DNA of 32,000 nucleotides, from contig NC_010628.1 in the NCBI RefSeq assembly GCF_000020025.1, positions 6,270,001 through 6,302,000 of the forward strand, read 5' to 3'. Shown here piece by piece: positions 4,160-32,000 of this stretch. Position 1 is the first letter of the stretch, and the number at the start of each line of letters is the position of its first letter. The notes under the pieces are model-generated. The model saw only the letters and a program-made list of their open reading frames with translations. It searched no databases and was not told the DNA's origin. The DNA comes from Nostoc punctiforme PCC 73102. GTDB taxonomy: Bacteria > Cyanobacteriota > Cyanobacteriia > Cyanobacteriales > Nostocaceae. Both the position numbers and the translations under genes were made by a program.

Positions 4160-5104
4160 GTGTTGCGAATCAGAAAATCAATGAGATTATCATTTTCTAA
4201 ATATCCCATAGCAGGGTTAGTCAGTTTGACTTTGTTGGTTGTTAGTATTCCCTCCCCTTCTCTTTCTCTCTCTGAGTATGTCCCTTCAGAGCTGGCAAAA
4301 TCTAATGGGAAAACAGCCATAGACTGGCTAAACCAAGGTTTACAGGCAATTCAGGCGGGCAAAGTAAAAGATGCGATCGCAGCCTTTAAACAAGCAGCCA
4401 AGTTAGATCCAACATTAGCACCAGCGTACTATAATTTAGGGCTAGCGTACCGACAAACAGGACAATTACAACCCTCTGCGGACGCATTTTATCGAGCGAC
4501 GCAAGCCGATCCTAAGTTTGCTCCAGCTTTTGCTAATTTAGGTGGTGCGCTATTAGAAGGCAATAATTTACAGTTAGCTAATGATTATTTGCAACGAGCG
4601 TTAGAACTCGATCCAAAATTGGGATTTGCCCACTATAATTTTGGGTTAGTAAGAGAGCAGCAAGGAGATTGTGAGAAAGCGATCGCATCTTTTAAACAAG
4701 CCATAGAATATAGCAAAAATGCACCAGAACCTCCTTACCATATAGGGATGTGTTATCTCCAACAAGGGAAACTCGATCGAGCAAGAGATGCCTTTAATCA
4801 AGCAGTAAAAATTAATCCGAAATATCCAGAAGCTTACTACAATCTTGGTTCGATTTGGTTTCAGCAAAACAAGTTACAAGAAGCATTAGAGGCTTTTAGA
4901 AAATCAGCCGAAGCTAACTCTAACTATCCCAACGCTTATTATGGTGCAGGGTTAGTTTTTATGCAGTTAAAGCAATATGGAGATGCAGTACAAGTATTCA
5001 AATTTGCTAGAGATTTATATAATGCTCAGAAGAATCCTCAGTGGGCGAAAAATGCCGAGCAATTGTTGCAACAAGCACAAAATTTAAATTACCAACCTCG
5101 CTGA
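4160..5104 (+). CDS. Secreted tetratricopeptide-repeat (TPR) protein
   Basis: The protein has a hydrophobic signal-like N-terminus followed by about six TPR units (AxAYYNLGLAY..G....A...Y..A...DP). The true start is more likely the ATG at 4181 (MRLSFSKYPIAG...) than the GTG at 4160. Confidence 0.85.
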   Translation: MLRIRKSMRLSFSKYPIAGLVSLTLLVVSIPSPSLSLSEYVPSELAKSNGKTAIDWLNQGLQAIQAGKVKDAIAAFKQAAKLDPTLAPAYYNLGLAYRQTGQLQPSADAFYRATQADPKFAPAFANLGGALLEGNNLQLANDYLQRALELDPKLGFAHYNFGLVREQQGDCEKAIASFKQAIEYSKNAPEPPYHIGMCYLQQGKLDRARDAFNQAVKINPKYPEAYYNLGSIWFQQNKLQEALEAFRKSAEANSNYPNAYYGAGLVFMQLKQYGDAVQVFKFARDLYNAQKNPQWAKNAEQLLQQAQNLNYQPR

Positions 5105-5787: not shown

Positions 5788-6032
5788 TTGTCTGTCCTAT
5801 CTCCTGATTTATCTGTTGACTAATAAAATATCCTCTTAGATGTGTAGAGTCAGTAAAACTCCAACTTGCTGCTTACGACTTGCTTATTTCTTAGTTTCAA
5901 ATCTAATTCTTTAGCAATATAGCAATCCTATTTGATTGGTGAGAATTGGAACCCGCAGATCCCCGACTTATCTTATTTTTTACGCATCAGTAATGGAAAA
6001 ATGAGATTGGATAAGGCTGAGGTAATTGGAAA

Positions 6033-6150
6033 GCGATGTCTACGACGGTCACTGAGCCTTGTCGTACCACTTCGTGGAAGCAAGCTACGCGGAGCGTCTG
6101 TCTGCGACACGCTGCGCGAACGTAGAGAAGTGCGGGCTACGCCTACGCAC
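6033..6150 (+). repeat. Composite nested small dispersed repeat (the 30-nt outer element interrupted by other repeat blocks)
   Basis: It starts with gcgatgtctacgacgg and ends with gggctacgcctacgca, which are the two halves of the intact 30-mer at 6762-6791. They are separated by about 86 nt, including tcgtaccacttcgtggaagcaagctacgcggagcgtct. Confidence 0.8.
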
Positions 6151-6534: not shown

Positions 6535-6633
6535 TGCGTAGGCGTAGCCCTTCTCCTGTCGGAGACGCTGCGCGTAGCTTGCTTCCACGAAGTGGTACGG
6601 CTGCGCTCAGGAACCACCCCTCGTAGACATCGC
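6535..6633 (-). repeat. Second composite nested repeat, inverted relative to 6033-6150
   Basis: Its reverse complement reads gcgatgtctacga...ccgtaccacttcgtggaagcaagctacgcgcagcgtct...gggctacgcctacgca. The 38-nt inner block matches 6062-6099 at 36 of 38 positions. Confidence 0.8.
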
Positions 6634-6761: not shown

Positions 6762-6791
6762 GCGATGTCTACGACGGGCTACGCCTACGCA
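6762..6791 (+). repeat. Uninterrupted copy of the 30-nt small dispersed repeat
   Basis: gcgatgtctacgacgggctacgcctacgca. The same ends flank the composite elements at 6033-6150 and 6535-6633. A 27/30 match lies in the kinase CDS at 31841-31870. Confidence 0.8.
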
Positions 6792-9699: not shown

Positions 9700-10010
9700 T
9701 AATAAAGTGGCGATATCTGGTGAAAAATTGCTTCTCTTCTGTGCGAGAAGCTGTACCAACGCCAATGCGCTTACGCAAAACTCATTTAATTTTGACATTT
9801 TCCAGCGCAACTCGCCGTTGAAATATGGCAGTGGGAACAATGCAATTTTGTGAGATCGCCATAAAGACAGCAGGGGAGCAGGCTTGCCGTGAGCGTAGCC
9901 GAACGGGAGCAAGGGGAATGGAAAAAGAACCAATTATCGGACAGAATTCATTCTATAGCTTGCTTCCCTGAAAGGATATTCTGATTCCACATTCCTGAAT
10001 TCTGTTTTGA
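9700..10010. repeat. Intergenic block of small dispersed repeats
   Basis: It shares acagaattcattct and cctgaattct with 3924-3965 and cttacgcaaaa with 6659-6669. It contains the gcttctc-N8-gagaagc hairpin at 9730-9751 and a tagcttgcttcc motif related to 6575-6586. Confidence 0.55.
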
Positions 10011-11268: not shown

Positions 11269-11890
11269 TTGTAAAAAAGTAATCAACAATTAAAATTTCT
11301 AAATCAACACACTTATGAAAGACTCCACAAATCCGGTTTTTAATAAACCAGTTTCTTTAGAAAATACAGCATTTTTCTTTGGTATGAAGTACAAAGCTAC
11401 GGTTTTTGAGATAAAACGCAGGATATAGAAACTCTTCATATCTGATTTTGCGTCCTACACTTTGTACCTCATTAAAAAGCAAACTGCTGTCAGTCTGCTG
11501 GTGAAGTTTTAACTAACAATGTGGCAATACCCTGCGGTTACTCCTTTGAAAACTCGTATAGTAGCCGCTTCTCTACCATAAGCTTTACTTAGCTTGCTTC
11601 TACGTAGGAGTATGCGTCTACATGAATGTCTCCACAGTCTTTAACTTTGTATAAGCCTATAAGCGCATCTTCAAACAGAAATGGTATAAAGTCACCCATT
11701 CAGGTGAAGGCATACAGAGATGTAACGGCTACCATGAAGTAATATTAAGCAACTATAAAGCTAATTATGCGTCTAGTTGTTAGCTTATTAATAAAGATTT
11801 AATCGAAAAATTTTAACAATTCCTCATTCCTGTACTCGCCCTTTAACTACGGGCTACTCCCATAAAGCAAGATTAATTAGGCTTTTAGAT

Positions 11891-17262: not shown

Positions 17263-17291
17263 ATCCCCGACTTCTTTAAGAAGTTGGGGAT
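17263..17291 (-). terminator. Rho-independent terminator closing the livF-like/Uma2 transcription unit
   Basis: On the minus strand, ATCCCCAACTTCTT...AAGAAGTCGGGGAT forms a stem of about 13 bp with one wobble pair, followed by TTTTGTTTCT. It lies 63 nt after the Uma2 stop. Confidence 0.65.
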
Positions 17292-17353
17292 CTCTGGGTT
17301 GCAATTCTCACAAATCCAATAAGATTAAGATAAATATGAATTTCTACAATTGC

Positions 17354-18712: not shown

Positions 18713-18889
18713 CGGCGGTTTACATCCAGAAATGTTGATTCAAAACCTAACATACATCAATCATACATTTCTTAAAAGAGTGCATCAATGTACCCTATCG
18801 TAGACATTGCTTCAACTTAAAAACCAACGCCAGAATACTGCAATCTTTATAATGTACGATTAATTACTGATAAATATATTAAGCGTCCT

Positions 18890-19729: not shown

Positions 19730-19841
19730 CACACTCTACACACTCCTATCGACGGTGAGTGTGGGCTTCTGTGCGACTCCTCTACGAGGAAAATACAGTA
19801 GCGCTGAAAACCACGTTTAAGAGTGCGTAAGCCCTTTGCGG

Positions 19842-20025
19842 CTACCCGAATTCAATCAACGACTGCCCGAATTCAATCAACGACTGCCCGAATTCAATCA
19901 ACGGCTGCCCGAATTCAATCAACGGCTGCCCAAATTAAATCAACGACTGCCCAACTTCAATCAACGATTGCCCGAATTCAATCAACAACTGCCCGAATTC
20001 AATCAACGACTGCCCAACTTCAATA
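19842..20025 (+). repeat. Tandem array of a 21-bp unit (ctgcccgaattcaatcaacga), 8 full copies plus 1 partial
   Basis: Unit boundaries are at 19842, 19863, 19884, 19905, 19926, 19947, 19968, 19989 and 20010. Each unit carries 0-3 substitutions. Five units carry an EcoRI site. Confidence 0.95.
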
Positions 20026-20078
20026 TAAAAACTTAGCAAATTTGCTTTTATTAAACACGAAAGCGATGGCTTTGCTAA

Positions 20079-20435
20079 CGCCAAGGGCGAACGCAACAAC
20101 TGGAAACAGTTCTAGCTTTTTTTGCTACGTTTGTTTTAGAGAATACGCTCGTTCAAGAAATCATGAGGTGGGATATGTCTGTATTACGTGAGCCACCTTG
20201 GTATCAGGAAATTTTGCGCGAAGGGGAAGTACGTGGAGAAGAACGCGGGAAAGCAAGCGGAGAACTACGAGGAATACTTTCTGCGATTGAAATTAATTTA
20301 GAGTTGAAATTTAGCGATCGCGGCTTACAATTAATGCCACAGATTAATCAGATTCAGGATTTGGAGCGTTTGAAGACAATTTTACGAAATGTTGTTACTG
20401 CAAATACTGTTGAGGAATTGCAACAGATTTTGTAA
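20079..20435 (+). pseudogene. 5'-truncated paralog of the Rpn/DUF4351 gene (C-terminal ~118 codons only)
   Basis: In frame with the 20163 ORF, upstream to the stop at 20076, it reads ..QQLETVLAFFATFVLENTLVQEIMRWDMSVLREPPWYQEILREG. This aligns with LNELESLLAFFASFVLEMPLVQQMMRWDMAILRESPWYHEIEQRG of the intact gene. No nuclease domain lies upstream, only the tandem array. Confidence 0.7.
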
Positions 20436-30699: not shown

Positions 30700-32000
30700 A
30701 TGATGCTGAAAGCACCCGAAAAATTTTTGATGATGCGCTCTTGGTTACTAACTTATGGTGTGATGATTCTGGCAGTCATAGCGGCGCTGCTGTTGACGCA
30801 ACTATTGCTACCAGTTTTTGATCCGAGCGTATTTACATTATTTTATGCTGCTGTAGCAGTCAGCGCCTGGTACGGCGGCATGAGACTTGGAGTATTAGCG
30901 ATCGCTTTTTCTGTTACAACTGCGCTCTATTTTTTGCTGGAGCCAGTCTACTCGTTCGATTTTCTCAGCCTAAACGTTTTAGTACAATTAACCACATTTT
31001 CACTAGTATCCTTCTTAATTACCGCCCTCTCTTCAGAGTTGCGAACTGCCAGACGTAAGGCCGAGACAAGCCTGAAATTGTTGCAAAATAGCGAAATGCG
31101 GTTTAGTCGCCTCGCAGAATCCAACATCATTGGAGTCATTGTTACTGATATTAAGAACGGCTCCATCATGGAAGCCAATGATGCTTTTCTGAAAATGGTC
31201 GGCTATACGCGAGAAGATTTGTCTGCTAACCAAATAAAGTGGCGTGAAATTACCCCACCTGAGTATCTTCTATTGAGTGAGCGTTCAGTACAGGAAGTAA
31301 AAACAACCGGAGTATGTAAACCCTTTGAGAAGGAATATATCTGCAAAGATGGCACAAGAGTGCCCGTTTTGCTCGGTTCTGTCCTTGTGCAAGAAACAGA
31401 AGAAACTGTCATTGGCTTTGTTGTTGACTTGAGCGAACGCAAACAAACCGAGCAAATCTTGCGAGAGAAGGAAGAACGTCTGAGGTTAGCTAACGAGCGT
31501 TTTCAGTTAGCAGCATCTGCGGTTAACTGTCTCATTTATGACTGGAATGTAGAACAGGATACTGTTGAAAGAACCGATGGGTTAACCCGAATTTTGGGTT
31601 ATTCTCTCGATATTGCAGAACCAACAGGTAATTGGTGGCGAGAACTTGTGCATCCAGAGGATTTGCAACGTGTAGAAGAAGAGTCGGCCATCGCTTTGGC
31701 AAATAGCGATCGCTATACTGCTGAGTATCGCATTCGCAACCAAGATAACCAGTACGTCTATGTACTCGACCAAGGAATAGTGGTGCTACGGGATGCTGAT
31801 GGAAAAGCAGTACGCATTGTTGGCAGCACTACAGATATTAGCGATGTCTACGACGAGCTCCGCTTACGCAAGCAAGCAGAGAAAGCAGTCCAAGAAAGTG
31901 AAGAACGACTCAGGAGTTTTGTCAAAGCAAATATAGTTGGCATTATCTTTGGCGATGTGAATGGTAGTATCACTGAAGCCAACGACGAATTCTTGAGAAT
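30700..32000 (+). CDS. Multi-PAS sensor protein (probable histidine kinase) with a DUF4118-like membrane N-terminus; the 3' end runs off the window
   Basis: Missing from the ORF track because there is no stop in the window. From ATG 30700 it is open for 433 codons: MMLKAPEKFLMMRSWLLTYGVMILAV...YGGMRLGVLAIAFSV. At least three PAS-like modules follow (NIIGVIVTD..EANDAFLKMVGYTREDL; CLIYDWNVEQD...WRELVHPEDL; NIVGIIFGD..EANDEFLR), joined by ERKQ(T/A)E-type linkers. AGGAGG lies at 30685-30690. Confidence 0.85.
   Translation, partial: MMLKAPEKFLMMRSWLLTYGVMILAVIAALLLTQLLLPVFDPSVFTLFYAAVAVSAWYGGMRLGVLAIAFSVTTALYFLLEPVYSFDFLSLNVLVQLTTFSLVSFLITALSSELRTARRKAETSLKLLQNSEMRFSRLAESNIIGVIVTDIKNGSIMEANDAFLKMVGYTREDLSANQIKWREITPPEYLLLSERSVQEVKTTGVCKPFEKEYICKDGTRVPVLLGSVLVQETEETVIGFVVDLSERKQTEQILREKEERLRLANERFQLAASAVNCLIYDWNVEQDTVERTDGLTRILGYSLDIAEPTGNWWRELVHPEDLQRVEEESAIALANSDRYTAEYRIRNQDNQYVYVLDQGIVVLRDADGKAVRIVGSTTDISDVYDELRLRKQAEKAVQESEERLRSFVKANIVGIIFGDVNGSITEANDEFLR
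31841..31870 (+). repeat. Copy of the 30-nt small dispersed repeat embedded in frame in the sensor-kinase CDS
   Basis: gcgatgtctacgacgagctccgcttacgca matches gcgatgtctacgacgggctacgcctacgca (6762-6791) at 27 of 30 positions. It is translated as (S)DVYDELRLR(K). Confidence 0.7.

Follow-up and report, generated by a model that had tools for sequence, protein, structure and literature searches.

The window analysed here is a stretch of 32,000 nucleotides (nt) of Nostoc punctiforme PCC 73102 (contig NC_010628.1, positions 6,270,001 to 6,302,000, forward strand), which ends within a gene encoding a sensor histidine kinase with PAS domains. The linker between the second and the third PAS domain of this kinase contains seven residues, VYDELRL, encoded by a 21-nt dispersed repeat at 31846-31866. 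It seems that this segment is a copy of a glutamate-encoding (Glu-type) variant of the small dispersed repeat SDR5, inserted into a HIP1-like DIS(D/E)RK site and tolerated as one helical heptad; the probability of this explanation is estimated at about 0.8. The SDR5-type element itself is already known, and the locus in the window is one of many. The Glu-type subfamily, associated with kinase linkers and possessing a compensated hairpin, may be new.

The repeat copy in the second PAS linker

30700-32000, plus strand: sensor histidine kinase gene, 5' part, including the DUF4118 membrane domain, PAS, PAS_3 and the start of a third PAS (translation, Pfam)
31426-31452, plus strand: linker 1 (DLSERKQTE), unoccupied, core AGCGAACGC (translation)
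31841-31845, plus strand: left HIP1 half-site GCGAT, codons aGC GAT, Ser-Asp (sequence)
31846-31866, plus strand: 21-nt SDR5-type element, Glu-type, GTCTACGACGAGCTCCGCTTA, encoding V383-L389 (VYDELRL) of the kinase
31867-31869, plus strand: right HIP1 half-site CGC, Arg390 (sequence)
6767-6787, plus strand: SDR5 of the glycine-encoding (Gly) type, intergenic, GTCTACGACGGGCTACGCCTA, in HIP1 (GCGAT 6762-6766, CGC 6788-6790)

The open reading frame (ORF) of the kinase begins at 30700 and continues past the end of the window. The Pfam search placed DUF4118 at residues 19-122, PAS at 134-246 and PAS_3 at 293-375, and the syntenic full-length relative L121 extends into GAF, HisKA, HATPase_c and Response_reg domains. 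Upstream of the kinase lies a small HTH gene, in the window as in the relatives. Linker 2 encodes DISD-VYDELRL-RKQAE, and the 30-mer that includes the insert (31841-31870, GCGATGTCTACGACGAGCTCCGCTTACGCA) is identical at 27 of 30 positions to an intergenic 30-mer at 6762-6791 (GCGATGTCTACGACGGGCTACGCCTACGCA). A search of the window with three mismatches allowed revealed no sites besides these two, and none was found in 100 dinucleotide-preserving shuffles; the match, pointed out in an earlier, sequence-only reading of this DNA, was thus confirmed, with zero expected by chance. The same reading had counted one Gly>Glu and two synonymous changes among the three differences, and the codons bear this out: relative to the 6762 copy, the kinase frame contains GGG>GAG (Gly>Glu), CTA>CTC and CTA>TTA. 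The element at 31846-31866 coincides with the Glu-type consensus of 23 sites, described below, at 20 of 21 positions and with the Gly-type copy 6767-6787 at 18 of 21. Its excision leaves AGCGAT|CGC, which contains the HIP1 octamer. Excision of 31845-31865 gives AGCGA|ACGCAAG (SERK), the exact sequence of two orthologues, in agreement with the suggestion that removing 21 nt restores a canonical linker.

The comparison of orthologous loci confirmed that the PAS2-PAS3 linker contains a dispersed 21-nt element in frame. L121, 95.1% identical to the window kinase, possesses the insert in linker 2 with CTT, and its copy shares 20 of 21 positions with that of the window. A clean 21-nt gap was found in L122 (Nostoc sp. 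CHAB 5715, 90% identical), which reads GATATCAGCGA|ACGCAAG (DISERK; linker DISERKQAE), and at exactly the same position in L143 (an ENA contig, 88% identical), also encoding DISERKQAE. The VYDELRL motif is absent from L122, L143, P0004, P0005 and P0121, and the seven residues are thus not common to orthologues across distant cyanobacteria. The insert is also missing from more distant orthologous linkers that precede the corresponding third PAS (DISQRK, DISDRK, DLSERK); therefore, the insert is derived, and it appears to have been gained between the points of about 10% (CHAB 5715-like) and about 5% (L121) nucleotide divergence. The single base private to the window copy is that of CTC versus CTT. 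Orthologous copies of the insert drift at the local neutral rate, as demonstrated by the window and L121 (20/21) and by L032 and L146 (D>N), and there is no special nucleotide constraint on the element after insertion.

The kinase gene is interrupted in several relatives, possibly through decay or an assembly error. The gene in L121 contains a frameshift near position 5000, protein P0003 ending in …ESADRFGK; in L143 a CAA>TAA change occurs shortly past linker 2 (about position 1783); and in L144 (3613-4988) the gene is broken up into three ORFs, with lengths of 132, 256 and 84 amino acids. Exact-protein look-ups returned no record for P0081 or P0132.

The element family, its HIP1 target and the Glu-type subfamily

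Copies of the 30-mer beyond the window proved to be numerous. The scan of one genome per species with the query GCGATGTCTACGACGRGCTNCGCYTACGC returned at least 120 loci, almost all from Nostocales, including Nostoc, Calothrix, Tolypothrix/Scytonema UTEX 2349, Aulosira, Desmonostoc, Komarekiella, Cronbergia and Trichormus. The element was also found on plasmids of Nostoc, Trichormus, Calothrix and Tolypothrix, and no copy was matched among viral contigs. When the central 21 nt are taken out of the 30-mer, GCGAT|CGC remains, which is the HIP1 octamer (GCGATCGC) occurring at 33 sites in the window (1.03 per kb). The left side carries GCGATG in 130 of the 136 element copies of the fetched loci, the TACGC flank is nearly universal, and the flanks outside the HIP1 halves are random. 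The minus strand reads GCG|TAGGCGTAGCCCGTCGTAGAC|ATCGC, i.e., the insertion lies between nt 3 and 4 of HIP1. The literature consulted describes the SDR5 of Elhai et al. 2008 (Genome Res 18:1484) as a 21-nt repeat located exactly between nt 3 and 4 of HIP1 and restricted to Nostocaceae (summarised in PMC4390886, PMC5861425 and bioRxiv 10.64898/2026.06.24.733823). The element matches this description in length, target and taxon, and is presumably SDR5 in sequence as well. A full-text literature search for the DNA of the element or its peptides gave no matches.

The copy at 6767-6787 is identical to the majority variant, which makes up 99 of the 125 copies of the genome scan. About one quarter of the scanned copies are located within open frames that span 200 codons or more. 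In-frame Gly-type copies, encoding DVYDGLRLR, AMSTTGYAYA or VGVARRRHR according to the frame and strand read, were found inside a non-ribosomal peptide synthetase (NRPS) adenylation domain, TPS-domain proteins, PAS kinases, an RluA-type synthase and an FGGY kinase. Such copies in many genes (NRPS, TPS-domain proteins, RluA, FGGY kinase) deprive the window locus of the status of a special clean example, which had been ascribed to it. Two other classes of repeats were considered and rejected. Terminal inverted repeats are lacking in the 21-mer, and its excision restores a contiguous octamer without duplicated bases, that is, without a target-site duplication, which is unlike a miniature inverted-repeat transposable element (MITE). 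The class of short tandemly repeated repetitive sequences known from heterocystous cyanobacteria (STRR, 7-nt tandem heptamers) does not apply either, as Tandem Repeats Finder shows no tandem array at 31841-31870 or 6762-6791.

The 125 scanned copies include 120 with GGG and five with GAG. Four of the five GAG copies lie in long ORFs, at D/N-[IVM]-S^RK sites after PAS domains; the fifth is intergenic, and one G>A change is all that separates it from the majority type. Additional copies were collected by a metagenome scan with the fully degenerate back-translation of DVYDELRLRK, and every copy returned reads GAT GTC TAC GAC GAR CTN CGC YTA CGC. The Glu-type set, pooled over all loci, comprises 23 distinct sites with the consensus GTCTACGACGAGCTTCGCTTA, from which the window copy is 1 nt away. 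GAT GTC TAC GAC is present at 23/23 sites, as are the first CGC and the last CGC; the Glu codon is GAG at 21 sites and GAA at two, the first Leu codon is CTT at 17, CTG at four and CTA at two, and the second is TTA at 20 and CTA at three. The 27 nt of these sites are 97% identical pairwise, and the flanking 50 residues 13-16%. Neighbouring conserved residues have mixed codons (GAT/GAC 10:6, ATT/ATC 10:6, AAA/AAG 17:5, GAA/GAG 14:6).

Sensor-kinase linkers, joining PAS to PAS or PAS/coil to HisKA, account for 20 of the 23 Glu-type sites; among the others, one lies in the periplasmic sensor domain of a kinase and one in a short ORF. The context-free scan gave, among the matches listed, all four diagnostic Glu-type copies in linkers and none of the 120 Gly-type copies. 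The chance that four diagnostic copies are all in linkers, with 0/121 of the others there, is about 1 in 10^7 (1/C(125,4)). All three differences that distinguish the kinase copy from the intergenic one are common to the Glu-type copies of unrelated kinases, and are therefore older than the insertion in the window. The proposal that the bias towards synonymous changes reflects selection after insertion has to be abandoned. The kinase copy also has closer relatives, namely the Glu-type copies, than the intergenic 30-mer at 6762.

The minimum free energy fold of the Gly-type is lost in the Glu-type, so the element was modelled as two 3-bp stems with 3-nt loops: GTC-TAC-GAC, G, GGC-TAC-GCC. Among 34 distinct variants, 94% of cells are paired in this model, and double changes are seen at three of the six pairs:

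pair 7/13: majority UA 28; others CG 5, UG 1
pair 16/24: majority GC 21; others AU 10, GU 1, unpaired 2
pair 6/14: majority GC 28; others CG 1, GU 2, unpaired 3

At 16/24, AU is the pair of the Glu-type; therefore, the G>A and C>T of the kinase copy form a compensatory pair, and the third difference lies in a loop. The covariation score of 0.27, based on few independent events, was reached by none of 500 shuffles, and slid controls gave at most 0.16. SDR5 is said to have a small conserved secondary structure backed by compensatory changes, as Elhai and colleagues reportedly described in 2008.

Mode of insertion and alternative explanations

The sequence-only reading took the linker to be a flexible segment, but the AlphaFold2 prediction points to a continuous helix instead. 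For a 433-residue fragment, modelled as a monomer with PAS3 ending early at the window edge, the mean predicted local distance difference test score (pLDDT) was 77, with a strand at 370-379 followed by a continuous helix at 381-417; the score was 85-87 across the insert D382-L389 and over residues 381-400. The spacer from D[ILMV][ST] to RK..E was measured in 237 proteins (one residue in 203 of 256 cases, eight residues in 18 and 15 residues in three) and in 146 representatives (one residue in 573 of 657, eight in 40 and 15 in two), the representative search being ranked by summed generic linker matches and the motif picked by a regular expression. By these counts, linker lengths in the PAS proteins retrieved step by one heptad (+0, +7, +14 residues). 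Most of the eight-residue spacers are D-x-Y-x-E-L-R-L variants (DVYNELRL, DLYKELRL, DAYGELRL, DVYSELRL), found in 26 of the 146 representatives. Position 5 of about 45 linker heptads, compared at the protein level, is always Glu apart from a single Lys, and never Gly. DAYGELRL derives from the GCC/GGC subfamily of SDR5, and the Gly>Glu change has therefore occurred at least twice. Diverged copies of the heptad were found on contigs of 47-50% GC content labelled as Oculatellaceae or Cyanophyceae; these labels of metagenome-assembled genomes (MAGs) and the GC content suggest a spread beyond Nostocaceae.

The following sequence of events can be proposed. An SDR5 copy would have landed in a HIP1-like sequence encoding Ser-Asp/Glu-Arg in the DIS(D/E)RK motif that closes the second PAS, after the split from CHAB 5715-like strains and before that from the L121 strain. 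With seven codons and no stop in frame, it would have added exactly one heptad, VYDELRL, to the helix that links the two PAS domains, and this would be why the insertion was tolerated. The effect of the extra heptad on signalling is probably small, because a seven-residue step keeps the helical register. The kinase copy belongs to the Glu-type lineage (GAG CTT CGC TTA) and is no mutated form of the common Gly-type; the diagnostic changes of this lineage are Gly>Glu, the loop change and the C>T that re-pairs with G>A in the second 3-bp mini-hairpin. New Glu-type copies may be made from existing ones by the HIP1-targeted process through which SDR5 spreads, and their persistence in kinase linkers may mean that the linker helix does not admit Gly at heptad position 5. 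A bolder form of this explanation, offered tentatively and with the odds somewhat against it, is that the Glu-type represents a "mobile heptad", an offshoot of SDR5 that has become adapted to life within coding sequence, encoding a VYDELRL suited to helices, keeping the hairpins required for mobility by means of the compensatory change, and actively copying itself among HIP1-type sites in the signalling helices of cyanobacterial sensor kinases, also outside Nostocaceae. If so, it would provide +7 and +14 linker variants as well as extra homology for the shuffling of PAS domains.

Several observations weigh against the proposed insertion of a Glu-type SDR5 copy. If Glu-type copies were ordinary donors, they would be expected at about 4% of intergenic sites, and none was found among about 130; the model combining copying from copy to copy with a selection filter is therefore incomplete. 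The empty alleles read GCGAACGC, one base off HIP1, and an ancestral HIP1 target with a GAT codon has therefore to be assumed. The close orthologues comprise just two with and two without the insert, the polarity being drawn from the distant linkers and from the identity with a repeat family. The folding energies of single-stranded 29-mers are no better than those of shuffles. Finally, the assignment to SDR5 was made by length, target site and taxon, as given in descriptions and not as sequence letters.

The strongest competitor, though clearly the less probable account, is a two-step origin, in which a Gly-type copy was inserted into the HIP1 site of a linker and then became Glu-type by short-patch gene conversion or by selected point mutations. 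This would explain why the Glu-type is confined to linkers even though donors of the Gly-type outnumber those of the Glu-type by a factor of at least 24, and intermediates are known: GAG CTG CGC CTA is one step from the minor Gly-type GGG CTG CGC CTA. In addition, DAYGELRL shows that Gly>Glu arose independently in a different subfamily. The flanks were not co-converted, which fits a patch within the element. However, none of the 120 Gly-type copies among the matches listed lay in a PAS linker, and none of the approximately 45 linker heptads was of the Gly-type. The recurrence at 17 or more sites of two substitutions that do not change an amino acid argues against independent point mutation, and the right-hand homology arm, beyond the diagnostic bases, measures only about 6 nt.

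It is unlikely that the heptad arrived through homologous recombination or domain shuffling with an already filled PAS linker, that is, in a longer tract instead of a 21-nt insertion. Orthologues do have two, three or four PAS domains, and hybrid linkers such as that of P0010 indicate that linkers recombine. The location of the Glu-type copy also differs among orthologues, being linker 2 in the window and L121 and linker 1 in L144/L145 and P0132. Against this stand the exact 21-nt gap relative to the empty alleles, with 88-90% collinear identity on both sides, and the flanks of filled linkers, which across sites are no more alike than those of empty linkers. A conversion tract including the flanks was rejected for the latter reason, the codons of the HIP1 half-sites being the sole exception; therefore, the moving unit is the 21-mer and not a longer tract.

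There is very little probability that PAS linkers have long possessed DVYDELRL as a conserved motif, its likeness to the repeat being coincidental or the repeat itself having been derived from the coding motif. Diverged protein variants (DVYNELRL, DLYKELRL, DVYSELRL and others) are indeed widespread, some of them on the Oculatellaceae- and Cyanophyceae-labelled contigs of 47-50% GC, where SDR5 has not been reported. But the codons GTC, TAC, GAC and CGC are the same at 23/23 sites despite the degenerate search, while the codons of the flanks vary; presence and absence of the segment are polymorphic among orthologues 88-95% identical; and the segment matches at 27/30 a repeat with at least 120 copies, versus zero expected. 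The reverse-origin version has nothing positive in its support. Least probable of all is that the seven residues are ancestral and were precisely deleted in relatives: two filled and two empty close orthologues, left unrooted, need one event in either polarity, but the segment belongs to a dispersed repeat family, the distant orthologous linkers before PAS3 are without the insert, and the one-residue spacer is the dominant norm (203/256, 573/657).

Linkers of this kind contain other heptads as well. Linker 1, empty in the window, is longer by 21 nt in L143 (EQQAALR), and in L144/L145 (P0010) and P0132 it contains EQQAxLR followed by a Glu-type SDR5, making a +14 linker. The DNA of this second 21-nt insert, CAGCAAGCTGCGCTACGCGAA (EQQAALR-E), was found in L143 (1346-1366), L037 and L144/L145, and heptads of the EQQAALRE type recur in many PAS proteins; in about 1 Mb of sequence searched, the insert occurred in PAS linkers only, with no intergenic copy. 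Two Glu-type heptads are present at different linkers of one kinase gene in L101 (5133, 6309) and in L148 (609, 1935), and in such two-heptad genes one heptad may be diverged, e.g., DVSEELRL. An eight-residue spacer DAYRQA(T/A)Q recurs in L150 (P0119), P0291, P0344 and P0370. Its DNA, GAT GCC TAT CGG CAA GCT ACG CAA CGC, resembles the GCC/GGC variant with +1 and -1 indels, and the spacer looks like a frame-shifted derivative of that SDR5 variant. SDR5 or linker-heptad copies were also met on L083 (Acetobacteraceae MAG), P0383 (Actinomycetota MAG) and L127 (a contig of 60% GC), which are probably mis-binned or chimeric.

Relation to known systems and other repeats of the window

The element resembles SDR5 in its 21-nt length, its position within HIP1 between nt 3 and 4, its many dispersed copies in Nostocaceae and its small compensated hairpins. 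In contrast to SDR5 as described, the kinase copy is a Glu-type variant with three diagnostic changes, nearly confined to helical sensor-kinase linkers, and some Glu-type copies are on contigs unlike those of Nostocaceae. HIP1, a highly iterated palindrome in cyanobacterial genomes, is the target; the codons AGC GAT CGC (Ser-Asp-Arg) of DISDRK make up a HIP1 site. However, HIP1 spreads by substitution and is non-mobile, and several Glu-type copies lie in CCGAT…CGC (DIT-D-RK), which offers only the inner CGATCG-type core.

Rickettsia palindromic elements (RPE), reportedly described by Ogata and colleagues in 2000, are said to be in-frame selfish repeats kept as an extra peptide in functional proteins. 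RPE are about 100-150 bp long, are not site-specific and occupy surface loops or helices in many unrelated proteins, whereas the unit considered here is 21 nt long and targeted to HIP1, and one of its subfamilies is tied to a single structural context. REP/REPIN sequences and MITEs, such as Nezha of cyanobacteria, are likewise short, non-autonomous and dispersed and have hairpin potential. Unlike them, the element is five to ten times shorter and has neither terminal inverted repeats nor a target-site duplication, and no associated transposase, RAYT or insertion sequence (IS), was identified for it.

Heptad-periodic signalling linkers (S-helix) are a feature of PAS-kinase sensors, and linker length has been studied on YF1-type chimeras; in engineered sensors, linker length sets the signalling behaviour. 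The linkers discussed here are similar in their predicted continuous helix and in natural lengths that change in seven-residue steps (+0, +7, +14). The difference is that the extra heptad comes from a mobile DNA repeat and not from duplication or slippage of the linker sequence. The data suggest that the repeat element supplies much of the natural heptad-step length variation of cyanobacterial PAS/kinase linkers.

Small dispersed repeats are candidates for the smallest mobile elements, and a subfamily tied to one context offers a handle on their mechanism: the covariation of the hairpins is kept, presence and absence can be compared at 88-95% identity, and donor and target sites are clear. Selection is separable from targeting in the Glu-type system. 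For annotation, the peptides DVYD(G/E)LRLR, AMSTTGYAYA and VGVARRRHR mark SDR5 insertions in genes.

The core 13-mer of the element occurs five times in the window (0.02 expected). Besides the copies discussed above, the following were found:

6033-6148, plus strand: HIP1-located Gly-type SDR5 with an 89-nt nested insert that splits it (repeat search)
6536-6633, minus strand: HIP1-located Gly-type SDR5, inverted relative to the 6033 copy and split by a nested insert of 71 nt related to the one there
18782-18810, minus strand: degenerate SDR5-like copy, GCAATGTCTACGATAGGGTACATTGATGC, 71% identity

The copies at 6033 and 6536 represent the 30-mer broken between …ACGA(C/G)G and GGGCTACGCC…, and their nested inserts have a common 53-nt core, 87% complementary between the two loci. 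No composite like these split copies was found in about 1 Mb of Nostocales DNA examined. A short dispersed motif, TAGCTTGCTTCC…, is part of the nested inserts and occurs at 6575-6597, 9956-9978, 11590-11612 and 893-924. Rfam and tRNA scans of the window found nothing. A 21-nt tandem repeat of 8.6 copies (19845-20024, unit CCCGAATTCAATCAACGACTG, 91% matches) lies in the ORF 19823-20191, where it encodes ARIQSTT-like heptapeptide repeats. A dispersed inverted repeat of 46 nt is present at 5924-5969 and 17281-17326, the two copies being 85% complementary.

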